NCBI GenBank assembly: GCA_014905635.1
Contig: CM026547.1
Coordinates: 3,348,001-3,412,000, forward strand
DNA: 64,000 bases
Direction: 5' to 3'
Origin: Scenedesmus sp. PABB004
Lineage: Eukaryota
Made by a program: the position numbers and the translations under genes. Shown piece by piece: positions 48,901 through 64,000 of this stretch (its first letter is position 1; each line of letters begins with the position of its first letter). The notes under the pieces are model-generated. The model was given only the letters and a program-made list of their open reading frames with translations. It was not told the origin of the DNA and did no database searches.

Positions 48901-50720
48901 CCGACCGCTGCCCAGTCGGCCGTCCGAGCCGAGTCGGCGGCGCAGCGAGAGCTGCTGCGCCGCTGCGCGCATCGCGGCGACGCCGCCAGGGCTGCTGCCC
49001 TGTTGCGACGGCCCGGGGCTGCCCCGCGCGGCCTCGGTGGCGCGGCGCGCTGCGCCGGGCTCGCGCCGGGGCTTTGCAGAGGTCAAGCTGAAGCCCGACA
49101 GCGCCACGCCCGCCCTGACGTCGCCGTGGCTCTGGCTGCGCTTGATGGCCGTGCTGAACGGCGAGGCCTGCGGCCCGCACGGCAGGTCAGCGGGGCGGAG
49201 GCCTGCCCGGGCGGCCGGCGCGGCAGCTGCAGCCGGCGCGCGCGCTCACCCGCAAGAGCGCCTGCTGCGCCAGCACGGCGCCGCCGCCGCCCAGCAGCGA
49301 CCGCCGCGACCGGCGCTCGGCGCGCTGCCTGCAGCACGGCGCGGCGCGGGGCGGTCAGCGACGCGCCCACGGCGCGTGCTGCGCCGCGCCCTGCGAGGCG
49401 CGCGGCCGCCGCGCCAAACTCACTGCTGCAGCGCGTCCGCCTCGGCGCGGCTGCTCGCGCGGCCGCGAGCCTCAAACTCGGCCGCCGCCGCCGCCATGTC
49501 CGCGGTGACCGGGCGCTGCGCGGACGTGCCGGCCATGATGTTGAGCAGCATCTGCGCGGCGCGCGGCGCGGGGCCGCTCGGCGCGGCGCGCGCGGGCGAG
49601 CGGGGCCGCGCTGCGCTGGGGGCCGGGCCACGCGGCGCGCGCCGGCGGCGCACCCGGTTGATGCTGTAGGGCGCGAGCGAGGCGATGCTGCTGCGCAGCA
49701 CGCACGTCGCCAGCAGCTCGCGCAGCATGGCGCGCGTGAGCGGGCACGCGCGCTCCTCGGCCGGCAGCACGTGCGACAGCAGCGCCTCTGACAGCCGCCG
49801 GCACACGCGGTACTGGCCGTCGGGCCGGGACAACGCGGGGTGCAGCGCGCGCGACTGCGACAGCACCGCCCGGATCGCCGCGTCCGCCTCGGCCGCCGGC
49901 ATGCCGCGCAGCGTGTCGCCGCCCAGCGCGTCCGCGGCGCGGCGGTACAGCGCCAGCGTGGAGCACAGCGCCGCCGAGCCGTCGCGCACGAGCAGCGCCG
50001 TCCAGTCCACGCGCTTGGCGCGGCGCGCGGCCTGGCCGAACGCGTGGTTGAGCAGCCAGCGGACCTCGGCCGGGAAGTCGCGGTCGGGGCTGAGCTGGCT
50101 GAACCAGGAGTCGTAGATGAACTGGCGCGCGCGCGGGTGGCGTCGGGCACGTGCGTGCGTGCGGCCCGTCAGCGCCGGCGCCGGCGCCGCCGCCCGGCCG
50201 GCCGGCCGCGGCGCGCGCGCCGGCGTGCGGTGCGCACCTCCTGGACGATGCAGTTGCACAGCCGCTCCCACGCCGCCGCCACCGGCTCGCTGCCCACCAG
50301 CCTGCGCCAGGCATCCCGGTCGCGCGGCGCGCGCCCCGCGCGCGCAGCGCCGTCAGCTGCGCCCGCCGCGTCGCCGCCGGCGCCGCTGGGCGGCGCGCGG
50401 GGCCGCAGGCGACGCCGCACGTCCAGGGCGCCGGCCAGCAGCCTGGCAGACACCACCAGGCCCACGGCCACCGCCCAGCGGGCCGGGCCAGTCGCGCAGC
50501 CTGCGGGCAGCAGTAGAGATGCTGAGCAACGCCCGCCCAGCGCGCACGGCGGCGCTGCGGCGCAGCGGCGAGTGCCACCGGCTCGTACGCGAGTCAACTC
50601 ACATTTCAGTAGGCCCGCAACGACCAGGCACAGCCCCGCCAGGCGGGCGAGGCCCAGAGCAGCGCCGGCCAGGGCTGACCGCCGCTGGCCGCACGCTCCA
50701 GCTCGCTCGCCGGGCGTCAT
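45996..50720 (-). CDS. PXA-PX-PXC (Nexin_C) sorting nexin, SNX13/14/Mdm1-like, with N-terminal TM helices
   Basis: PXA AWERLCNCIVQEFIYDSWFSQLSPDRDFP; PX VYKVRV...WTVTRRYRHFEALHKRL...LPPKR; PXC GAIDDFM...LQAQLWPGGVWF; hydrophobic N-terminus; TGTAA at 45938-45934. Confidence 0.88.
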
Positions 50721-51430
50721 TGGCTCGCGCCAGGGGGTGGCATGCGCGGCGCGTCGCGGCGCGCGCGCGCCGTGCCGGCGCGGCGCCCCTCCTGTACTGC
50801 CCCCTCGCTGCTGCTGCCGGCGCGCGGACGGCGCGGGCGGTCGGGTCGCAGCGCGGCTGCGTCACCAGCGCCGCACCGCGCGCGACGCGTAGGGACGAGC
50901 GCCGCGCCCGGCGTGCGCCGCACCCGCCGAGGTTCACGCCCGACAGCCAGCTCGCGGCCCCCCGCCCAGCCAGGGCGCCGCGCCCTGCGCCGCGGCACTC
51001 GTCCAGCGCGCCAGCCAGCGCCGCCCGACCGCCCGACACGCGCGACAGGATCGCCCGCACGCCGCACGGCACCCCGCCAGGCACTCGCAGCCCGCGGCGC
51101 CCGCCCAGCATGGAGAAGGCCGACGCGCACGCCGTGAAGATCAGCCACCACGCCAACGAGCACAAGGCGCACCTGGACGCCAAGTCCGGGCGCCAGGAGC
51201 GCCACAGCGGTGCGCGCCCGAGGGCGCCGAGCCGCGCCGCGGCGCCCACGGCGCGCTGGAGCGCGCCCGGCAGCGCGCTTCGGGGGCGGCGTGGCGCCCG
51301 CCCCGTCACGGCCGCGCGCTCCGAAACGCCCGCGCCGCGGAGGCGCCGGGCGGGCCGGGGATCTCCCGGCGCCGCTGCTGCCGCGGCGCGCCGCCGCACC
51401 GCCGCCGCGGCGGGCGGGGCCGCCGCGCCG
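50704..51430 (+). repeat. Source arm of a ~725-bp inverted duplication (bidirectional promoter + exon 1 + part of intron)
   Basis: Near-identical to the reverse complement of ~53972-54693. Confidence 0.92.
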
Positions 51431-51622
51431 GGCTGCCTGCGAATTCAGCTGGACGCTGTCGGGCGGTCCTGTGCGCTCGCGCCCACACGCGCCGCCGCGC
51501 CGCCGGCGCTGCCGCGCGCAGGCACCGGCCGCGGCCTCAAGGAGGGCCCCAAGAAGGCCGGCGGCGGCTCCGGCAACTGGGGCAGCCTCAAGGACGAGAT
51601 TGACGAGGCCCGCCAGATGTGA
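51110..51622 (+). CDS. 66-aa protein with SERBP1/Stm1/HABP4-type motif, 2 exons (51110-51209, 51522-51622)
   Basis: MEKADAHAVKISHHANEHKAHLDAKSGRQERHSGTGRGLKEGPKKAGGGSGNWGSLKDEIDEARQM; GT-AG intron; TGTAA at 51809. Confidence 0.8.
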   Translation: MEKADAHAVKISHHANEHKAHLDAKSGRQERHSGARPRAPSRAAAPTARWSAPGSALRGRRGARPVTAARSETPAPRRRRAGRGSPGAAAAAARRRTAAAAGGAAAPGCLRIQLDAVGRSCALAPTRAAAPPALPRAGTGRGLKEGPKKAGGGSGNWGSLKDEIDEARQM

Positions 51623-51914
51623 TGCCTGCCCTGCCAGCAGCAGCAGCCGCCGGTAGCCAGCCGCACGACCGCGGACAGTTTTGAGGGGGGCGGGGGGCTG
51701 CGCCTGCCCCGACTGACTTCAGCTAGCCTGACCTGACGGCGCGCGGAACTTGATTGGTTGCTCACGCATCGCGACAGCCCCCGGGCGATGGCGCTGACAT
51801 TCGCAGACTGTAACAGCATTCCGCCAGCACGCTCACGCGCAGGCGCTCCCGCCGGCGTTGCGCGCGCGCCGCGCCACACCCGGGCTCGCCGGCGGCGGGC
51901 GCGCACCCGCCGCC

Positions 51915-52671
51915 TCAACCCACGAGGCCGTTGGACGCCAGGAATGCGAGCGTGAGCGCCGCCAGCAGCGCCGCGAAGCCGCCTGCGCCCCGCGGCGCGC
52001 GGGCGGCGCGGCGGGCCCGGTCACGGCTGGCTGACCGCGCGGCTGCAGGGTCAGCACTCTGCGCGCAGTGCAGGGGCGCACCTGCGAGCTGCAGACTGCG
52101 CTTCAGCATGTCCGCGCTCGACGCGGCGTTGTCCTCGCGCACGTCCGTCGTCAGCAGGCCCGCGTAGTAGCCAGCGCCCCGCGCGCCGTCGCCGCTTCTG
52201 CTGCCGCGGCTGTCGCCGCCGCCGCCGGCGCCGCTGCTGCTGCTGCTCGCCGCCGCGCCGGGCGCTGCCGCTCCTGCGGCAGCGCTCGCCTCGCCGGGCG
52301 CGCCGGCGCTGCCGGCCGCCGGCGGCGCGCTCATCGCGTTGATGGCCTCGCTCATGTTGTAGAGGTCGGGGCAGCCTGGCGCGGCGCACGGGGCGGCGAG
52401 GGCCGTCGCGGCGCCGCACGCACGCGCGCGTGCGCGGCGGCGGCAGCGGCGCCGGGGCCGCTCGCCGCGCCCGCACCAATTGCGCGGCCGCCGCCGCCGA
52501 CGCTGCTGCTGGTGATGCCCGAGCCTTCATCACCGGCGCCGGCGCGCGGCGCGGGCAGCGGGCGGCGGCGCGGGCCCCCGCAGCGCGTGGTGGCCGGCAG
52601 CAGGAGCGCGGCGCCGCCGGCAGCGGCTGCGCCGCGGCGGGCGCTGGTGGCGTCCGGAACAGCTGCAGCAT
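51915..52671 (-). CDS. Small hypothetical membrane protein, possibly plastid
   Basis: C-terminal YYAGLLTTDV...DMLKRSLQLAG|GFAALLAALTLAFLASNGLVG*. The N-terminus looks like a transit peptide, but the frame of the 5' exon is unresolved. Confidence 0.5.
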
Positions 52672-53141
52672 CGTGGCGGCATGCACCGGGCGGGGCGGTG
52701 TGCGGCGCGGGCAGCGCGACGCGGGAGCTGGCCTGCGGTGCAGCGCCGCTCAACCCCTGCGCCGCGGCGCCGCCGCTCCTCGCCCCGCAGCCGAGCGACG
52801 GTTCCGGCCAGCCAGCGCCGGAAGCCTGCACAGCAACCGCCCAGCAGCAACCGCGCGCCGCCTCGCTGTCCCGGCCTGCCCGGCCTGCCCGGCCGGCAGT
52901 GCTGCCCAGGGCCCTCGCCGCCGCCTACACACAGCGCCACCGACACCCTCACCTGCCCGCGCAGACGCACAGACGCAGCTCGGCGGCGGCGTGCGCGCAC
53001 GCGGGGCAGCAGCGGCCGCGCCGCGCCGGCGCGGCGCCGGCGGCGCGGCGCGGCTCCCCGCAGGCGCGGCCTCTCACCCGCCTCTGACCGGGCAGCAGTG
53101 CCGCGGCGCCGTCCCGCCTGGCAGCGGGACAGCGCGGCGGC

Positions 53142-53908
53142 ATGGACGGCGGGGGCGGCTACAGCAGCAGGCGCGCGGCGGCGGGGCCGGCGCGGGGCCG
53201 CCTGGCCGGCTCCGGCTGCACCTGCGCCGGCCACGGCGCCGGCGGCAGCGGCGTGCGCGGCGCGCGCGCGCGCGGGACCGCGGCGCCCGCTCGGCGCGCG
53301 CGCGCCGACCCCCGGGCCCGCCGCCGCCGCCCGCCGGCGGCGCGCAGGGGCGGCCTGCGGCCGCGGCAGGACCACGTGCAGATCAGCGTTGAGAAGTTTG
53401 ACTACGAGGCCCAGGTCTCGGAGCTGCGCGGCGACGTCGCGCGCATCAAGCAGGCGCGGCGCCACAGGGGGCGCGGGCGGCGTGCCGGCTGCGGCCGAGC
53501 CGGAGCGCCGGCGCCGCCGCGCGTGCGCGCCGCGCCCGCGCGCGCCGACGCCGACGCCCGCGCGTGCGCGCCCGCCCGCAGCTCGCGTACGCCATCGACG
53601 AGGAGCGCAAGCTGCAGGGTGCAGACATCAACTCGCTGGTGCGCCACCGCGCCGCGCAGCCGCGGGCGCCCGCGCGCCGCTCCCGCCGCCGCCGCCAAAC
53701 GCGCCGGCCGCCGCGCGCCGTGAGCGCGCAGGAGGAGGCCATGGACCGCGCCAAGCTGATGATGGGCAAGGCGATGCGGCGGCTGAACGTGGTGTACAAG
53801 CAGAGCCGCAGCAACCTCATGCTCTGGGTCACGCTCTTCATCATCGGCATCTTCATGCTCGTCTACACCCTCAAAAAGCTCTACCACATCGGCCGCATGA
53901 TCGCCTGA
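53142..53908 (+). CDS. Bet1/SFT1-like Qc-SNARE, 4 exons
   Basis: MDGGGGYSSR|GGLRPRQDHVQISVEKFDYEAQVSELRGDVARIKQ|LAYAIDEERKLQGADINSL|EEAMDRAKLMMGKAMRRLN..., ending in the TM segment LMLWVTLFIIGIFMLVYTL. Confidence 0.85.
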
Positions 53909-53971: not shown

Positions 53972-54693
53972 CGGCGCGGCGGCCCCGCCCGCTGCAGTGG
54001 CGGTGCGGCGGCGCGCCGCGGCAGCAGCGGCGCCGGGAGATCCCCGGCCCGCCCGGCGCCTCCGCGGCGCGGGCGTTTCGGAGCGCGCGGCCGTGACGGG
54101 GCGGGCGCCACGCCGCCCCCGAAGCGCGCTGCCGGGCGCCGCCGTGGGCGCCGCGGCGCGGCTCGGCGCCCTCGGGCGCGCACCGCTGTGGTTCTCCTGG
54201 CGCCCGGACTTGGCGTCCAGGTGCGCCTTGTGCTCGTTGGCGTGGTGGCTGATCTTCGCGGCGTGCGCGTCGGCCTTCTCCATGCTGGGCGGGCGCCGCG
54301 GGCTGCGAGTGCCTGGCGGGGTGCCGTGCGGCGTGCGGGCGATCCTGTCGCGCGTGTCGGGCGGTTGGGCGGCGCTGGCTGGCGCGCTGGACGAGTGCTC
54401 GCCGCGGCGCAGGGCGCGGTGCCCTGGCTGGGCGGGGGGCCGCGAGCTGGCTGTCGGGCGTGAACCTCGGCGGGTGCGCCGCACGCCGGGCGCGGCGCTC
54501 GTCCCTGCGCGTCGCGCGCGGTGCGGCGCTGGTGACGCAGCCGCGCTGCGACCCGACCGCCCGCGCCGTCCGCGCGCCGGCAGCAGCAGCGAGGGGGCAG
54601 TACAGGAGGGGCGCCGCGCCGGCACGGCGCGCGCGCGCCGCGACGCGCCGCGCATGCCGCCCCCTGGCGCGAGCCAATGACGCCCGGCGAGCG
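53972..54693 (-). pseudogene. Inverted partial duplicate of the 51110-51622 gene (promoter + exon 1 at 54283-54184; exon 2 missing)
   Basis: Encodes MEKADAHAAKISHHANEHKAHLDAKSGRQENHSG (2 aa changes), then the same GT donor; truncated inside the intron. Confidence 0.9.
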
Positions 54694-55748
54694 TGGTCCT
54701 CGAAGCTCCAGCTGTCTCGGCCAACCCTCGGGACCGCCTTCCTGCGCTCGCCGCAGCCCGCGCGCCGCCCCCGACCCCGCGCGAGCTGGTGCCGGCGCGC
54801 TGCCGCGCGCCCGCCGCCGCCGCTGCGGAGGGCGCCGGGCCTCCGCCGCGCGCAAAGGGGCGTTTCCAGTCGCAAGGCAGCCGTTCTGAGCGTCGGGGGC
54901 GCGCTGGCCGTCCGGTCGAGCAGTCTGTTACTGTGGCCAGTCAACCCCGCCTCCCAGCCGCTCCTCCCCTCCTCGCGCCCCGGCGCCGCGCCTGAGCACC
55001 GCGCGCCATCTCACGGGTGGGAAAAAGCCCGCCGCAGCCGCACAGCACGCACCCGTGGCGCCCGCAGCACTACAGGGGGCCCGCCGCAGCAGCCCGGCGC
55101 CGGGCGGCCACCAGGCGACGCCGTAGCACATGAGGAGCCCCGGCTATGCCCACCCACCGCCCTGCTGGGGCAGGAGGCGCGCGCAGGCCAGCGCCGGTGG
55201 CAGCCTCGCGGCTGGCAGGTGCGCTGCGGGCCACGGGACGCGCCGGGGGGCCGACTTGGAGGCCTCCGGGCCTCTAGCCGTCGCGCCGCGGCGAGCGGGG
55301 GCCGCCCGGCGCCGGCAGCACGCGGCGCAGCTCGGCCGTGCTGCAGCGGCCTACCCGCCGTGGCGGCGCCGGGCCCCGGCGAGGCCCGTGACGCTCGCTG
55401 ACGAGCTCGGCAGCGTCGTGGCCGGCGCGGCGCGCCCCGCGGCCCCGCGGCCGCGCGGGCCGGGCGCAGCAGCAGGCTGTTGGCGCCGCCTGGCGCGCGC
55501 TGCGGCGTGGACAGCGCCAGCGGGGCGGCCCGGGGCGCGCTAGGGGTGGCGGGCCAGGCCTGGCGCGCGCCAGGGGCCGGCCCGTGGCCCCTGGCGCCCG
55601 GCAGCGGCGTTCAACGCGGTCGCGCCATGCCTCGCGGCCGCCCCTGGCGCGCCGGCGACAGCACGCCGCCTGCCCGCCGCCCCGGACCGCGGAGCGCCCG
55701 CCCACAAACCCGCGGGCGCCCCCCGCCGCGCCGCAGGTGACGAGCCCC

Positions 55749-58700
55749 ATGGGGCAGGGCAGCAGCACCAGGAGAGGCCCCTTTGACGACGAGGGATTCG
55801 CGTCCAGCCCAGGTGCGCCGCGCAGGGCCTCAGCAGGGCCAGCCTGCAGCGCAGCGCACGCTGAGCGCCGTGCCGGCGCCGGCGCGCCGCCCACGCCGCG
55901 CGCCGCTGCGCGCCACCCGCGCGTCCCCGCCCCGCGCAGGCACGGAGCCCCGGCGCTCGGAGCAGCAGACTAGTAGTAGCGGCAGCCAGCCCGGCACCCC
56001 AGTAGGAGCAGGCGACCCCGCAGCGGCAGCGACGCCGCTGGCCAGCAGCGGCGGCGGGAGCGCAGCGGGAGCGGCGGCGGTCGGCGGCACGCAGCAGGTG
56101 CGTCGGCGGGGGCCCGGCGCGCGCGCGCGCGCGGCCGCAGGGCGGCCAGCACAGGGCGCTCCCGCGCGCGTGCGCTGCTGCGCGCAGCGGGGGCCCGCTG
56201 CGCCGGCAGCCGCCGACGCGCGCCCCCCGCCCCCGCGCCCGCAGGCGCCCGCCATGGCGGCGCAGCAGCCGGCGGCGGCGGCGGCGCAGCCCGCGGCGGC
56301 GGCGGCGACGGCGGCGGCCGCGCCGCGCCCGGTGGCGGTGCACAAGAGCACGGCCATCATCCCGGGCTGGTCGCGGCCGCTGTCGTCGCAGGCGCTCACC
56401 ATCGAGTGCCAGAAGATCACGCAGCCCGGCCGCGCGGCGGCGGCCAAAGAGAGCTACGGCGTGATGGAGCTGGAGGTCATGAAGTTCGTGGCCTACTGCG
56501 GCGGCCTCACCATCAAGCTGCGCGTCGACGACCTGCAGCACGGCCCCGTGGAGAGGTGCGGCGCGCGCGCACGCGCGGGCGCAGGCAGCGGCCGGCCGCC
56601 AGCCTGGCGCCCGCCCGTGGCGCGGCGGCCGCGCAGCAGCGCCGCCCCGGCGCGCCCCGGCTGACCCGCGCCGCGCGCGCGCGCGCAGCATCACGTGGGG
56701 CCTCGCGGCGATGCGGCCCTGCCACGCGCTCGCCGTGGCCGGCGGCGGCGCGGCGGCCAGCCCCGGCGCCGGCTCGCCCGACCGCCGCGCGGGCACGCCG
56801 ACCGGCGGCCGGCCGAGCGGCGGCAGCAGCAGCGGCAGCGCCGTGCCGGGCGCGGGCAGCGGCGCCAACCGCGCGCACCCGACCACGCCCGTGAGCGTGG
56901 ACAACCCCTCGCGCAAGCCGCTGTACGCGATCTGCACGACCGCCACGGTCGCGCGCGCGGCCAAGGGCGACGTGCTGTCGATGGACCTCAGCCCCAAGGA
57001 GGACGGCCAGCCCGTCATCATGGTCACGCTCGCGCACAACGACGCGGTGCTGCTGCGCGCCGCGCTGCCGTGCGCGAGCATCGCGGCGCTGCAGATGTAC
57101 CCCTTTGTCACGGTCCTGGTGCGCCGCGCGCGCGGCCGGGCCGCCGCCGCCGCCGCCGCGCCCCGCGCCGCCGCCGCACACCGCGCGCGCGCGCGCCGCC
57201 CCGCGCGCCCGCGCCGCCCCGCAGCCGGGCATGGTGGTGTCGCTGCACGAGGCGCTGACGCCGAGCCCGCTCTTCACCTGGTACTCGCCGACCAGCGCGA
57301 CGGCGGACATCCAGATGGCCGACCTGGACACGTGCGTCAAGTACAACACCGCCGCGACGACCATCAGCAACGGCGTCAGCGAGTTCCACGGCTCCACGAC
57401 CTTCACCGGCGGCCGGCACCGCTGGACGGTGCAGCTGGACAACATGGGGCAGCTGCCGGGGCACATCTTTGTGGGCCTGGTCAACGCGGAGCCCAGCCAG
57501 GCGCCGAGCAGCAGCATCCTGGCGTCGGCGCTGCCGGCGGCCATCAGCAGCCGCATGATGGGCCTGCCGGGCTCGCCCATGCTCGCGGCGTCGCCTGCAG
57601 CGGCAGGCAGCGCCTCGCCGGGCGGCGGCCCGGGCGCCACGCCGAGCCCCGGCGGCGCCGCGGGGCTGGCGGGCGAGGCGGCGGCGGCCGCCGCCGCGGT
57701 CGCGGCGGCCGGCACTCCCACGCTGGGGCACCTGGGGCCAGCGGGGCCCCTGCAGCGCCGCTGGGGTGTGTGGGTCAAGCTGCCGGGCGCGCCCACGCCG
57801 GGCGGCGCGGCGCCGGCGGGCAGCGGCGCGGTGCCGCCCAAGCTCGGCGACGTGCAGTTTGTGGAGAGCGTGAACAACCACTGCTGCATCACGGTCGACC
57901 TGGACCTCATCGGCGGCTACGCCAAGTTCTTCAGGAACGGCCACCTGCTGGGCCAGGCCTTCACCGGCCTCACCGCGCCCATCAGCCCCGCGCTCGCGTT
58001 CATGCAGGTGAGCCGGCCGCGGCGCAGCTGCGCCGGCCCGCCGCGCCCGGCCCGCCGCCCGCCACGGCCGCCACGGCCGCCCGCCGCGCGCTCCCCGCTC
58101 ACCGCGCCGTGCGCGCCGCGCCGCGCCGCGCGCCGCCGCAGGGCACCAACCAGCACCTGCAGGCGGGCCTGGTGAACATCACCAAGCTGCAGCAGCTCGA
58201 CCTCGAGTGGAACGCCGAGGCGTGCAGCGGCGACCTGCGCGTGAGCGGGCGCGTGGTGCAGAAGGTGTCCGAGGTCTTTGGCGACTACAGCACCGTGCTC
58301 GCCAACCAGGGCTTCATCAGCGGCGTGCACCTCTGGCTCATCAAGGTCAACAACCTGTCCGAGCCGGACAGCATCTTCATCGGCGTCTGCCGCGGCTGCA
58401 TGCCGCTCGACCAGGACCCCCAGGACCTGCGCGACCGCACCTACTACCTCAGCAACGGCGTCATCCGCGTCGGCGGCCGCCGCGTCGCGACCAACGCCGC
58501 GTCCTTCACCAAGGGCGACATCGTGGGCGTGGTGCTCGACGCCGACCAGGGCGAGATCGTGTTCCTGCGCAACGGCATCGAGCAGGGCCGCGCGCGCGGC
58601 ATCCGCGGCCGCCTCTACCCCTTTGTCTCGTTCGACAGCGAGCAGGACCAGATCACGCTGCTGGGTGAGCGCGCCGCGCGCGCTCGCCGGCTGGCCGCGC

Positions 58701-61700
58701 GCGCTGGCCGCGCTGGCTCGCCGCGCCGCCCGGGCCGCCGCGCCGGCGGCGGCGGCGCGCGTCTGATGCTGTGCTGCCCCCGCCCGCCCGCCTCACTGCC
58801 CGCGCGCCTCGCCTGCCCCGCCCCGCCCGCGCGCGCGCAGGCTCCTACACGCTGCCGCTCAACCGCACGCCGCGCACGCTCGCCGACATGGAGTGGGACA
58901 CCGTGGGGCGCAGCGCCGACGTCGAGCTGTCCAGCAACTGCCTGACCGCGACCAAGACGAGCAGCGCCGCGCCCAGCACGGTGCGCGGCACCATCCTGTA
59001 CGGCGACCTGGGCTGCCACGAGTTCCACGTCATCCTGGACAGCCTCGGCCCCGACGGCATCTGGGTCGGCGTCGCGCGGCCCGACATGGACCCCGCCAAG
59101 TGCGTCGGCGACGTCGGCGCGGGCTGGGCGCTGCACAGCGACGGCGACCGGCGCTTCAACGGCCGCGAGGAGGAGTTCACGAGTGAGACGCCGGCGGCGG
59201 CGCGCGCGCGCGGCGCCCCTTGGCCCGCGGAGGGCGGCGGGCGGCTCGGCGCCCGGCGCTCCTCTGCGCGCGCGCGCGCGCGCGTGCGCGCGTGCCCGCT
59301 GACCTCTGCCGCGCCGCGCTGCGTTGCGCCCCGCGCGCAGGCCCGTTCAAGAACGGCGACGTGCTGACCGTGGGCATGGACCTCACCAACGGCGTGCTGC
59401 GCTTCAGCCGCAACGGCATCCACCTCGGCGACGCCTTCACCGGCGTGACGGGCCCGCTCGTGGCGGTCGTGACGCAGGCCAGCGAGGAGAGCAAGGTCAC
59501 GATCCAGAACCGCCCCACCGTGCTCAACATGGGCGAGTACACGGGCGAGCTGAGGTGCGCGGCGCGGCGGCGCGGGGCAGCAGGCCGCGCGCGCGCGCGG
59601 CGCGGGGCTGCAGGCTGCAGGCTGCGGCGGCTCACGCGCTGCGGCCCCGCGCGCCCCGCGCGCCCACGCGCGCCAGGTGGGACGAGGTGCGCGCGGGGCG
59701 CGACCTCCACGTCATCGACGGCCTCACCGTGACCAAGATGTCCAACGAGGGCGGCGACTACGCGACCGTGCTGGGCACGCTCTGCATCGCGAGCGGGCAG
59801 CACACGTGGAACGTGTACGTCAACCACGTGGAGGACTCCAACCTCTTCATCGGCGTCACCGTGGGCGGGCACGACCTCAACGCCGACCCCCAGGAGATGA
59901 AGAGCCGCACCTACTACCTCAGCAACGGCACCATCCGCGTCGCGGGCAAGCTCGTCACGCGCTGCGCGGAGCCGTACGCCGAGGGCGACCTCGTGACGGT
60001 GCAGCTCGACATGGAGCAGCACCACATCTCCTTCTACAAGAACGGCGTCCTCCAGGGCGCCGGCGACGGCCTGCCGGGTGCGCCGCGGCGGCGGCGGCGG
60101 CGGTGGGGCGGGCGCCGGCCCGCCCGCTCCGCCCGGCGCCGCAGCCGCAGGCGCGCGCGCTCACGCCCCGTGCCGCTGCCGCCGTGCGCGCGCAGAGGAG
60201 GTGTGGCCGTATGTGTCGCTGGACAACATCATGGACAGCATCACGCTGCACAGCAGCAACATGTTCCTGGACCTCGCGCACAGCCTCAAGTGGAACGGCG
60301 CCAAGTGCTGCCAGTGGATCCAGATCAGCGAGGAGGGCACGACCGCGAGCCTCAAGCCGCATGCGCAGTTTGACTCCTTCCTCGGCCAGGCCACGGTGCT
60401 GGGGCTGCGCGAGTACAGCCGCACCGAGGTTCACAGCTGGGTCGTGCGCCTGGCGCAGGTGCGTGCGCGCGGCGCGGGCATGCGCGTGCGTGCGGCCGAC
60501 GCGGCGAGCGCGGTCAGCAGCTGGGCAGTCCCGCGTTCAGCGTCCCCGCCGCGCTGCCCGCCCGCCGCTCACGCGCGCGCCGCCGTGCCGCCGCCGCCGC
60601 CGCCGCCAGCCCGCCGGCACCGCAATCGCCAACTTCCTGGTCGGCGTCGCGCCCGCGGGCATGGACCTCAACCACTCCATCGGCCAGGAGGGCTGCGGCA
60701 TCGGGCTGGACTACTACGGCTACATCTACATCAACGGCAAGTACTTCCACGTCTCCAACCTCTCCAACTGGCAGTCGGTGGCCAAGCCCTGCCGCGGCTC
60801 CACCGCGCGGCACAAGGGCAAGGCGGGGCCGATGTTCCGCTTCCTCGAGGGCAAGTGCGAGGTCACGCTCACGCTCGACCTCAAGGAGGGCACGCTGCGC
60901 TTCAGCAGCGGCGGGCACAGCATCGGCACGCTCGCCAACATCACCGGCCCCCTGCACGCGGCGCTCACGCTGACCAGCACCAAGCAGACCGCGCAGATCG
61001 CCGCGGGTGAGCCGCGGCGCCGCGCGGCGCGGCGCGGCGCGGCGCCGCGCGGCGCGGCGCGGCGCGGCGCGGCAGGCGCGCGCCTGCTGCAGGCAGACCC
61101 GCCGCCAGCGCGCGCGCCGGGGCCACGCGCCCGGGCAGCCGCCGACGCGCCGCCCGCCGCCCGCCGCCACGCGCGCCGCCGCCGCCGCGCAGGGCCCATC
61201 GGCAACACCGAGCACACCGCGGAGGAGCTGGTCAACATCCTGCAGTCCAAGGGCCACCTGAGCAACCCGCGCGCCGAGGCGGCGATGCTGGTGGTGCCGC
61301 GCGACCTCTTTGTGCCGCGCGACCGCCACCGCGAGGCGTTCCGCGACCAGAAGGTCACCGTGCGCATGCCGGACGGCTCCACGCTCATCATGCCCAACCC
61401 CAGCTTTGTGGCGCTCGCGCTGGAGCGCCTCGACCTGCAGCCCGGGAGCAGCTTCCTCGACGTCGGCTGCGGCAGCGCGTACGTCACCGCCGTCGCGGCG
61501 TGCATGATCGGGCCGTCGGGCGTCGTGCACGGCATCGAGTGCCTCTCCAGCCGGCTCGAGGCGGGGCGCAACAACCTGCGCCTGCTGCGCGAGCGGCTGC
61601 CGCCGGAGCACGTGGTCAAGCACCTCGCGCTCGCGGGCAGCGTGCAGGCGGCGCTCGGCGCGGTGCACCTGAGCCTCACGAACGTGCTCATCCCCGAGTG

Positions 61701-63940
61701 CACCGACGGCGTGCTGTACGACGCGCTCTACTGCGACAACGCGCTGAGCGAGGAGGACCTGCCCGCCTTCCTCTCGCTGCTCAAGCCCCAGGGCCGCATG
61801 GTGGTGGTCATCGAGGAGGACATGCTGCTCATCACGCGCAGCGGCAGCGACGCGCACGACTACGCGCGCGAGAGCCTCACCAAGATCAGCGGCGACTTTG
61901 GCGAGCTCGAGGACCCCACGCCCTGGGAGGTGCAGGAGGCGGTGCAGCGCATCAAGGCGCGCGAGCTGCAGAAGGGCCTCAACCAGGCCAAGGTGCGCGG
62001 CGGCGGGGGCGGGCGCGCGGGCGTGCGGAGAGCGGCAGCGGCGACGCGCGGCAGCCAGCTGGGCAGCGGGCTTCAGCCCACCGCCAGCAGCCCTGCAGCG
62101 CTCACCCGCCGCCGCCGCCGCCCGGCCCGCGCGCGCGCAGAGCGAGGTCGGCAGCCTGCGCAGCAACGAGCTCGCCGACATGCACGCGCGCATGGGCGTC
62201 GCGATGCAGCGCATCGCCGAGCTCGAGGCGGCGGTGCAGCGCGGCGGCGGCGGCGCCGGCGCCGGCCCCAGCCGGCCCAACGGCAACGACGACACGCGCG
62301 CCGTGATCCGGGACAACAAGTTCCGGCGCACGCCGCGCATCTCCCCGCACGGCAGCGCGCGCAGCCCCGGCGCGGAGCCGGCGCTCTTTGCCGGCGGCGG
62401 CGCCGGCGGCGGCGCGGACAACGTCAAGATGCGCACGCGCCAGGTGCTGGACGACAGCGAGGAGCCGCTCATCCGCTCCGACAAGGCCTGCCTGGAGGAG
62501 CGGCTCAGCGGCCGCATCGGCACGTCGCTCGCGGCGAGCGCGGGCGACATCATGACCGCGCTCGGCGTGCAGACGCTCACGCCCGCCCAGGTCGCGGCGA
62601 TCGTGGCGGGCGCGCCGCCCGCGAGCCGCGCCGGCTTCACCCTCTACACGGGCCTCTTCCGCGGCACGCGCGTGTCGGCGTGGCGGCTGACCATCGCGCA
62701 GCCCGTCAACGTGCTGGAGGTGCACCGCGCGTACTCGCGCTTCAGTGCCGCCCACCCCAACGTCTGCGCCGTGATGGGCATCTGCATCGAGCCGCTCGAC
62801 ACCGCGGAGCCGATGGACGAGGACGGCTGCGGCAGCCCCAGCCGCGGCGGCGCCGGCGCCGGCGCCGGCGCGCCGGCGGGCGGCGCCGACGTGGAGGAGG
62901 GCGGCTGCCACCTCTGGGTGCTGGAGGAGCACCACGGCGGCCAGACGCTCGCGCAGCGCGTCGAGCGCGGCCTGCTGAGCTGGCAGCACGTGCTGGGCAT
63001 CGCGCAGGACGTCGGCGCGGCGCTCGCGTACCTGCAGTCGCTGCGCCGCATCTGCCCGCTCGCCGACGGCGGCGGCGGCGAGCTCAGCGACAGCAACGCG
63101 CTCGCGGCGCCGCTGTCGCCGCTCGCGGTGGCGCAGATGCTGGTGCTGGAGAACGTGCAGGTCAGCGCGGCCGCCACGGCCAAGCTGAGCCTCGTGCCGG
63201 CGCTGCTCACGCAGCTCGAGTTTGCGCTGTGCGTCGCGCCCGACGCGCAGCGCGTGGCCGAGGTCAGCAGCCTGCTGCTGCCCTACATCCACCCGGGCAG
63301 CATGTTCAGCGGCGGCGGCGGCGGCGCCGGCGGGCAGGCCTTTGACGGCCTGTACAGCTACGGCGTGGTGCTGCTGCAGCTGCTCACCGAGCGTTGCGCG
63401 CCCGGCCTGCTGGGCACGGTGCAGGCGGCCATCGCGCAGCGCGCGCTCGGCAACCTCGTGCCGCGCACGCCGGCGGCGGGGCCGGAGAGCGAGCAGCTGG
63501 CCGCCGACCTGGCGGCCCTCGCGCTGCGCTGCTGCGGCGTGCAGCAGCCGGCGTGCGGCGCGGCGGCCGGGCCTGCAGGCGCAGGCGCCGGCGAGGCCGG
63601 CAGCAGCAGCGGCGCCGGCGCAGCGGGCGGCCAGCAGCAGGCGCCGTCGCTGGACCAGCAGGTGCTGCCGGCGCTGGCGGCGCTGCAGCGCAAGCTCGAG
63701 TCGCTGGGCACGTCGACGATGTCGTGGGAGCAGGTGGAGGAGCTGCTCATGATGCCACTGCAGCCGAGCACGAGCAGCAGCGACCCCACGACGCGGCGCT
63801 GGGTGCGGCAGGACTTCAAGATGCGCCGCAAGCTCTTCCTGGAGGAGGTGGCCAAGATGGCGGTTGAGGGGCCGATCCACAAGATCGAGGTCCGCCGCAG
63901 CCGCTGCTTCAAGGACAGCGTGGCCACCTTCAGCGGCAAG
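55749..63940 (+). CDS. Giant multidomain protein: 5 SPRY domains, PIMT/PCMT-like methyltransferase domain, coiled coil, pseudokinase, start of probable HECT domain (incomplete, runs off window)
   Basis: Starts MGQGSSTRR. SPRY repeats include GDIVGVVLDADQGEIVFLRNG...LYPFVS. PIMT-like exon 61193-61992 contains FLDVGCGSAY. Exon 62141-63940, in a frame absent from the ORF track, is kinase-like and ends HKIEVRRSRCFKDS. Confidence 0.85.
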
Positions 63941-64000
63941 GTGCGCGTCGGGCTGGGGCCGGCGTTGGGAACGGAGGGCTGGCGCTGGCTTGGCTCGGCC

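Follow-up and report, generated by a model that had tools for sequence, protein, structure and literature searches.

Positions 55749-63940 (+ strand) of a 64,000-nucleotide stretch of contig CM026547.1 from Scenedesmus sp. PABB004, referred to here as the window, probably contain exons 1-13 of one nuclear gene, which encode 2162 of the about 2540 residues of a giant HECT-type ubiquitin ligase of this chlorophycean alga; we place the probability of this reading at roughly 60%. The predicted protein begins with MGQGSS and a divergent SPRY-like module, followed by five SPRY repeats and a PCMT/PIMT-like Rossmann domain. Next come a long helix and, after a disordered linker, a pseudokinase of the receptor-like kinase (RLK)/Pelle type, which a helical linker connects to the HECT domain. 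It is recognition by the N-terminal part that defines a HECT ligase, and the algal one adds three unusual modules, namely a six-fold SPRY array (the first copy being probable), a PCMTD1-like S-adenosylmethionine (AdoMet) domain, and a dead RLK-type kinase. This HECT architecture is real and is conserved among the model green algae. The same gene is found in relatives, and the protein is unstudied.

Between 55.7 and 64.0 kb, the + strand shows recognisable protein segments in stop-free frames, and the stretches between them are Arg/Ala/Pro-rich, which is typical of GC-rich introns. Exon borders were placed by enumerating the GT/GC..AG pairs that keep the frame open, with the local consensus G/GTG[CA][GA]...[CG]CAG/ (slashes mark the borders). 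This enumeration gave exactly one consensus-fitting pair for each gap. The resulting model joins 13 canonical GT..AG exons into one open frame of 2162 amino acids (aa) with no stop, from the ATG at 55749 to the donor GTGCGC at 63941 (+). Exon 1 (55749-55812, +) carries the start codon and is in frame with the rest, and exon 2 (55940-56097, +; acceptor GCGCAG, donor GTGCGT) encodes a low-complexity linker rich in Ser, Ala, and Gly. An ATG at 56254, considered as the start, was replaced by that at 55749 after exon 2 had been placed and the N-termini of orthologues were found to agree. The orthologues of Volvox and Chlamydomonas reinhardtii start with MGQ(G/V)PS, as do the proteins P0090 and P0098, while Tetradesmus has this sequence at an internal Met. 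Since orthologues begin at, or contain, the Met of MGQG(P/S)S equivalent to that at 55749, the start given in an earlier note, which was made from the DNA letters alone, is supported. The N-terminus is conserved across orthologues, and MGQGSS (55749-55766; MGQGPS in Volvox and Chlamydomonas) fits Met-Gly-x-x-x-Ser, which we take to be the pattern for N-myristoylation. At the other end, the earlier note was right in closing the last exon with a donor. It stopped at ...CFKDS, however, and seven more codons (VATFSGK) lead to the consensus donor AAG/GTGCGC at 63940/63941; the exon ends in ...VATFSGK in the public protein described below and in all orthologues. Pfam gave no match at E ≤ 1 for exon 1 or for the last 60 residues encoded in the window.

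The public protein KAF8073005.1 (P0094; 2792 aa, Scenedesmus sp. PABB004, named "TOM1-like") was found by a search with an orthologue. Its residues 193-1488 and 1551-2416 are letter for letter those of the spliced model, so that exon 1 corresponds to the protein from residue 193, exon 2 is identical, and the last exon is identical at 600 of 600 residues. Residues 2417-2792, encoded past the end of the window, make up the full HECT domain. The public gene model needs two corrections. One concerns its first 192 residues, which come from upstream exons (51110-53863). The final one of them is SNARE-like (Pfam SNARE E 8e-4, below the cut-off), encodes a C-terminal hydrophobic tail, and reaches a stop of its own ~40 nt later; the joining of this upstream gene to the ligase is probably an annotation fusion. 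The other is intron 11 (61007-61192, +; 186 nt, borders GTGAGC...CGCAG), which was kept as coding in the public annotation and appears there as 62 additional Arg/Ala-rich residues. Because this intron is in frame and stop-free, its retention adds the 62 residues without breaking the protein. All seven orthologues examined are contiguous at this site (...A(P/A/L)GPIGK...).

A search of sequencing runs returned no run covering half of the stretch, four RNA runs of a relative ("organism B", ~90-95% identical), and one run (X3) of the same organism as the window. Contigs from three runs of the relative, all from one study, were aligned to positions 55000-64000. Five RNA joints, each with a shorter side of 66-243 letters, are found at 57118/57228, 58003/58138 (cut +4), 58663/58840 (cut +1), 59181/59346, and 59551/59674; they include the two introns that flank exon 5 and the splice between exons 7 and 8. 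A single 1792-nt RNA record of the relative joins 58558-61001, crossing 60074/60195 and 60458/60626. Another leads from 61967 to 62152 with 36 letters in between, equal to the 25+11 exonic letters by which the model connects the PCMT exon to the helix exon. Among the joints listed, at least eight of the 12 introns in the window are supported as joints or as contiguous pieces. Joints with sides of 20-26 letters over kilobases (e.g., 56133/59189) were dropped as low-complexity artefacts. Five of the eight X3 pieces listed match the window without mismatch, and two cross donor sites (55812 and 63940) unspliced; therefore X3 looks like DNA and is no evidence of transcription.

That all these domains belong to one polypeptide, as had been proposed, is supported by the collinear frame, the identical public protein, full-length orthologues, and open reading frames (ORFs) of 2415 and 2381 aa (P0090 and P0092) on Logan contigs of 8.4-8.5 kb. 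Since these contigs are intron-free, we read them as spliced transcripts of the complementary DNA (cDNA) kind. P0090 is collinear with residues 1-2162 of the model. In addition, an ORF from the transcriptome of Flechtneria rotunda (P0077, 69% identity) contains the C-lobe of the pseudokinase together with the full HECT domain.

Of the HECT N-lobe, the window encodes no more than the initial ~45 residues. They lie at the end of exon 13 (62141-63940, +), where the segment at 63806-63940 (DFKMRRKLF...IHKIEVRRSRCFKDSVATFSGK) is followed by the donor GTGCGC at 63941. The in-window DFKMRRKLFLEEVAKMAVEGPIHKIEVRRSRCFKDS aligns with the start of the HECT N-lobes of TOM1 and HUWE1, so the HECT-entry segment that had been recognised in the raw sequence was correctly identified. 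Both KAF8073005.1 and a close orthologue (P0044) run on from ...SGK into a full HECT domain. In the former, residues 2448-2788 match PF00632 with E 3.9e-69 (profile positions 3-303 of 306), and the predicted catalytic Cys (AHTCF) is present in the C-lobe, ~35 residues from the C-terminus, where it aligns through P0044 with HUWE1 LPSAHTCFNQLDLPAY. The HECT domain of P0044 aligns with those of HUWE1 and the NEDD4 family at E 6.4e-54 to 1e-50, Cys motif included. A HECT domain downstream of the window had been expected, and the predicted identity as a HECT-type ubiquitin ligase is supported by these matches. The HECT domains of HUWE1, TOM1, and NEDD4 align with the algal one from end to end and have in common the entry DF..R..F....I.VRR..F.DS and the catalytic ..AHTCF..LDLP.Y, whereas the algal N-lobe has a ~45-residue insert compared with the HUWE1/NEDD4 type. 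By Pfam, the algal protein has none of the N-terminal domains of HUWE1 (DUF908/913, UBA, WWE) or NEDD4 (C2, WW).

The predicted SPRY array occupies exons 3 to 11. Pfam SPRY (PF00622) was found above the cut-off in three exon-level ORFs (E 5.1e-9, 4.4e-6, and 3.8e-7; 27.2-36.7 bits against a cut-off of 26.3 bits), and in KAF8073005.1 it was found in three stretches with E 4.5e-37. For comparison among repeats, slices of an orthologue alignment of nine species (R1-R6) were aligned with each other by hhalign. Seven of the 10 pairs among R2-R6 reach at least 88% probability, and the weaker pairs are R2-R3 (50%), R2-R5 (23%), and R5-R6 (12%). R2 and R6 are tied to the Pfam-matching repeats at 88-98.8%. 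R2 corresponds to exon 5 (57225-58007, +), contains a low-complexity insert of ~100 aa, and has no Pfam match of its own, while hhalign connects it to R4 (96%) and R6 (92.5%). R3 is exon 6 (58142-58664, +; Pfam E 5.1e-9) and is connected to R5 at 99.8%. R4 is encoded by exons 7-8 (58841-59182 and 59341-59554, +), with the Pfam match (E 4.4e-6) on its second half and hhalign probabilities of 98% to R3 and 98.8% to R6. R5 is exon 9 (59677-60077, +; Pfam E 3.8e-7), and exons 10-11 (60196-60458 and 60610-61006, +) contain the end of R5 and R6, the latter connected to R4 (98.8%) and R3 (88%). Judged by these profile matches, R2-R6 are five SPRY repeats, the number given in the earlier note.

The earlier note also suggested a degenerate sixth SPRY domain near the N-terminus. 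R1, encoded by exons 3-4 (56245-56555 and 56689-57118, +), is a divergent SPRY-like beta-sandwich with a disordered insert and is conserved in nine orthologues. Its AlphaFold model has a mean predicted local distance difference test (pLDDT) score of 62, with core blocks at 80-93 and 99 residues below 50. The best Foldseek match of this model is the SPRY domain of HERC1 (E 0.0095), and SPRY/B30.2 domains range from E 0.0095 to 0.05. VIA-align against 48,161 chains gave Z 8.9-7.5 with SPRY/PRYSPRY titles in eight of the top 11 rows, scores that are borderline because Z 7-8 can arise without relatedness. In the comparison by hhalign there is no sequence link between R1 and R2-R6 (none of five pairs above 1%). 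R1 is probably a sixth SPRY domain, with moderate support from its modelled fold.

Exon 13 begins with a long helix (62141-62245, +), a putative coiled coil that had been noticed after the PIMT-like exon. AlphaFold models exon residues 2-35 (34 residues) as a single helix, and the region has a weak profile match to a kinesin heavy-chain coil (E 3.5e-4). The kinase-like region of this exon (62543-63551, +) has no Pfam family at E ≤ 0.01, and the family profile gives weak collinear matches to RKS1, TGFBR2, and IRAK4. The fold is assigned by structure and profile comparison. In the AlphaFold model of the exon (600 residues, mean pLDDT 64), the kinase core reaches 76-94, and Foldseek aligns it with LYK3, SYMRK, BSK8, IRAK4, and plant pseudokinases at E 1e-9 and template modelling (TM) scores of 0.59-0.74 (target). 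Foldseek gave at least 500 matches at E ≤ 0.001, the best 50 of them being without exception kinase or pseudokinase domains. Hhalign against a small plant kinase family gave 99.5% probability and E 1.6e-22; the hhalign alignment shows that the beta3 Lys is replaced by Trp, the alphaC Glu by Ala, the Asp of HGD by Gln, and DFG by LVP. With the beta3 Lys, alphaC Glu, HxD Asp, and DFG all replaced, the domain is a pseudokinase of the RLK/Pelle-IRAK type, in accordance with the earlier reading.

Plant kinases are the closest active relatives of this pseudokinase, and the plant family just mentioned includes a kinase+U-box ubiquitin ligase (E3) of Rubroshorea leprosula (P0070), with which the algal protein shares a homologous kinase domain and the C-lobe signature LLQLLT...LALRCC. 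In both, the kinase or kinase-like domain is immediately N-terminal to the E3 catalytic module. VAIK, HGD, and DFG are retained in the plant proteins, which end with the U-box; in the algal protein W, Q, and LVP take their places, and the HECT domain follows. This is hinting that the pairing of kinase and E3 is old and that the E3 module has been exchanged.

Exon 12 (61193-61992, +) encodes the predicted PCMT/PIMT-like domain, a seven-beta-strand methyltransferase fold, with a conserved C-terminal extension of ~50 residues (GDFGELEDPTPWEVQEA). The coordinates are exactly those given for the PIMT-like exon in the earlier note, and the exon matches PF01135 with E 1.2e-19 (71.4 bits against a cut-off of 20.3 bits; profile positions 3-124 of 210). 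Orthologues cover profile positions 3 to 174 or 176. Of the solved structures, human PCMTD1 (9oma) matches best, with E 1.8e-12 for the single sequence and 3.3e-16 for a family profile of 13 sequences (chain residues 10-207). With the family profile, archaeal PIMTs (E 3e-13) and human PCMT1 (E 8e-8) follow behind it. A near-length search with the domain gave 36 matches, all of them exon-sized fragments of the same algal family and none of them PCMT1 or PCMTD. The exon is among the best conserved parts of the protein (59-90% identity, from Dunaliella to close relatives).

In PIMTs, pre-motif I reads T-I-S-A-P and has a conserved Ser in the isoaspartyl pocket. The algal family has T-(L/M)-(I/T/S)-(M/L)-P-(N/P)-P instead (T-L-I-M-P-N-P in the window). 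In the alignments with PCMTD1 and archaeal PIMTs, the Ser of 'SAP' falls on a Pro, and all 13 of 13 family members share P67 and P69. Among the 14 aligned sequences, 13 have this Pro within P-x-P; the exception is a Volvox paralogue (P0013), which has ISAPH. At the position of Thr in PCMT1 and His in PCMTD1, the window species has Ile and its relatives have T, S, or I, with Thr as the family consensus. Motif II has changed from YDAIHVGAA to YDALYCD, and an insert separates it from post-motif I. Compared with canonical PCMT1/PIMT (PF01135), the algal domain therefore differs by Ser to Pro in pre-motif I, by an altered motif II, by the extra insert and C-terminal extension, and by lying inside a multidomain ligase. 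Its AdoMet motifs are preserved. Motif I reads FLDVGCGSAYV, with LDVGCG in 14 of 14 aligned sequences and A, G, or S for the third Gly, and the acidic post-motif I residue is the Glu of VHGIEC. PCMTD1 contacts AdoMet through N86, T91, L94, E112, and L113, as given in PMC12590147, and these positions are D, S, V, E, and C here, all of them conserved or conservative. AdoMet binding by the algal domain is thus plausible on the strength of its motifs. P0013 is Volvox carteri VOLCADRAFT_92375 (759 aa), in which a canonical-looking PIMT domain (Pfam PCMT E 4e-25) is joined to BTB/POZ (E 1.5e-7), a domain typical of cullin-3 adaptors, and it keeps ISAPH as well as YDAVHVGGA.

A near counterpart is human PCMTD1, the substrate receptor of a cullin-RING ligase with CUL5 (PDB 9oma/9omf), where a PIMT fold with intact AdoMet motifs is likewise coupled to ubiquitin-ligase machinery. 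PCMTD1 has 357 aa and a SOCS box that recruits ElonginBC and CUL5, while the algal domain lies inside a HECT ligase of ~2540 aa; Pfam on KAF8073005.1 found no SOCS box and nothing other than SPRY, PCMT, HECT, and a HABP4 match in the wrongly fused 5' part. In PCMTD1, 'SAP' is intact and His takes the place of Thr; the algal family has Pro-x-Pro and T/S/I (Ile here). Binding of isoaspartate has been shown for PCMTD1 and is hypothetical for the algal domain. According to PMC12590147 (2025), the CUL5 RING ligase (CRL5) with PCMTD1 requires AdoMet for binding isoaspartyl peptides and is inactive as a methyltransferase, and pre-motif I lines the isoaspartyl pocket in PCMT1 and PCMTD1.

The earlier note interpreted the whole protein as a convergent ligase that reads isoaspartyl damage. 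In such a protein the PCMT-like domain would bind L-isoaspartyl proteins in an AdoMet-dependent manner and pass them to the HECT domain, as a single-chain counterpart of CRL5-PCMTD1. The rank of PCMTD1 as the best solved match, its AdoMet-dependent binding of isoaspartyl peptides without methylation, the state of the AdoMet-contacting positions, and the strong conservation within the algal family of the altered pre-motif I, as expected for a working pocket, all speak for it. Against it are the remodelled pre-motif I with invariant Pro in place of the SAP Ser, the Ile at the Thr/His position, and the changed motif II. Isoaspartate recognition is therefore a hypothesis weakened by the lost Ser and the changed pocket and kept alive by the resemblance to PCMTD1 and the strong conservation; as stated in the earlier note it is not upheld, and we consider it doubtful. 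The word "convergent" is doubtful as well. Since PCMTD1 outranks the true PIMTs, a PCMTD-like module may just as well have been inherited from a common ancestor as have arisen by convergence.

An active methyltransferase, acting on carboxyl or other groups of substrates or of the ligase itself and thereby coupling methylation with ubiquitination in one enzyme, is improbable. The family consensus does keep Thr where the His of PCMTD1 blocks the channel (PMC12590147), but the window species has Ile, the conserved Ser is lost, and the nearest solved relative, PCMTD1, is inactive even as the reverse His-to-Thr mutant, as stated in the same source. It is quite improbable, too, that the PCMT-like and pseudokinase domains are ligand-free structural relics that serve as spacers or dimerisation surfaces, with specificity residing only in the SPRY array. 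A pseudokinase without any catalytic residue and a remodelled PCMT pocket would suit that idea, but the PCMT-like exon is among the best conserved parts, and an invariant motif I would be superfluous in a spacer. Finally, an artefact of the gene model, in which two or three neighbouring genes (SPRY, PIMT-like, and pseudokinase-HECT) only seem to be fused, is hardly credible: although the public model was over-merged at its 5' end with 192 residues of a SNARE-like gene that has its own stop, and the SPRY6-to-PCMT intron is absent among the RNA joints listed, no junction has an in-frame stop, the relative's RNA covers at least eight of 12 introns including that from the PCMT exon to the helix exon, seven of seven orthologues are contiguous across the SPRY6-PCMT junction, the two long Logan ORFs are intron-free in a cDNA-like manner, and the Flechtneria ORF links the pseudokinase to HECT.

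With the AdoMet motifs kept and the substrate pocket remodelled, the PCMT-like domain is most likely a non-enzymatic ligand-binding or regulatory module. In the HECT ligase that we favour, the HECT Cys would take ubiquitin from the ubiquitin-conjugating enzyme (E2) and hand it to those proteins that the SPRY array recruits. The PCMT-like domain would be cofactor-bound and PCMTD1-like, not necessarily with isoaspartate as its ligand. The dead kinase domain beside HECT may be a scaffold or a regulatory surface, at the place that a homologous active kinase occupies in plant kinase+U-box ligases, and the MGxxxS start may provide membrane anchoring by myristoylation.

Several observations weigh against this picture of the ligase. 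The HECT domain itself is encoded past the end of the window, and what is known of it comes from the identical public protein only. The RNA that shows splicing comes from the relative, introns 1-3 and 11 are absent among the joints listed, and the only identical run, X3, consists of unspliced pieces. The third Gly of motif I is Ala in the window species (GCGSA), which could weaken cofactor binding. AdoMet binding, recruitment by SPRY, myristoylation, and the scaffold role of the pseudokinase are all deduced from motifs and folds.

The architecture is found in full-length orthologues with SPRY, PCMT, and HECT throughout Chlorophyceae. With the pseudokinase/HECT-entry exon as query, a search of 1.84 billion representatives gave only 63 proteins at E ≤ 0.001. 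The stronger matches are mostly fragments of the same family, and the few weak ones examined are ordinary kinases or unrelated proteins. An orthologue as query gave 18 proteins at E ≤ 1e-10, 11 of which have SPRY, PCMT, and HECT together. Named members are from Tetradesmus obliquus, Scenedesmus sp. PABB004, Volvox africanus, Haematococcus lacustris, Chlamydomonas incerta, and Dunaliella salina, and further cluster members are from V. reticuliferus, C. schloesseri, and C. reinhardtii (CHLRE_10g433900, i.e., Cre10.g433900). In databases the orthologues are named "hypothetical", "HECT-type E3 ubiquitin transferase", "TOM1-like", or "HUWE1". The architecture is thus conserved, already deposited in databases, and uncharacterised.

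Literature searches on HECT with SPRY, with PCMT/isoaspartyl methyltransferase, and with Chlamydomonas, judged in part by titles and abstract openings, gave no description of this architecture. No paper was found on a characterised protein that has it, in line with the earlier impression that it did not resemble any. In the 2013 survey of HECT proteins by Grau-Bove et al. (PMC3673628, main text), SPRY is exclusive to class I. The main text of that paper has no occurrence of PCMT, methyltransferase, Pkinase, Chlamydomonas, or Volvox. Class I proteins with SPRY (HERC1 and KIAA0614/HECTD4 in the same text) likewise have it N-terminal to HECT. They have one SPRY combined with RLD, WD40, or other domains, while the algal protein has six in tandem (R1 being probable) together with PCMT and a pseudokinase.

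The PIMT fold on a second, unrelated ligase chassis, with PCMT+BTB of Volvox as a third, would suggest a general reader module of the ubiquitin system. A tentative extension, which we think unlikely, is that an AdoMet-loaded PIMT-fold pocket is a recurrent reader of degrons or metabolites on three E3 chassis, namely SOCS-box/CUL5 (animal PCMTD1), BTB (Volvox P0013), and HECT (all core Chlorophyceae), and that the algal ligase senses isoaspartate-type damage or the state of AdoMet and S-adenosylhomocysteine (AdoHcy) and is connected with photoautotrophic growth. Chlamydomonas allows a direct test of the question. The orthologue Cre10.g433900 is expressed, appearing as the row "Ube3-5" of an expression table (PMC7838096), and it is one of 253 higher-confidence photosynthesis candidates from a screen of acetate-requiring insertion mutants, where it was not validated (PMC8448359). 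In print the gene was found in these two papers, both times as one row of a table.

The G+C content is ~79% across the window and 74-81% in each 2-kb bin, an extreme value for the nuclear genome of a eukaryote. In all frames, introns and linkers translate to runs of Arg, Ala, Pro, and Gly, and as a result many spurious long ORFs exist on both strands. Upstream of the ligase gene, the gene at 51110-53908 (+) has a HABP4/PAI-RBP1-like start (Pfam E 2e-7 in KAF8073005.1) and the SNARE-like last exon. An inverted repeat of ~730 nt (50704-51430 and 53972-54693; three adjoining pairs, 95-99% complementary) flanks 2.5 kb and copies the first coding exon of this upstream gene (MEKADAHA.KISHH...) onto the opposite strand at 54283-54182. 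Either a recent inverted duplication or a fault of the assembly could account for it.

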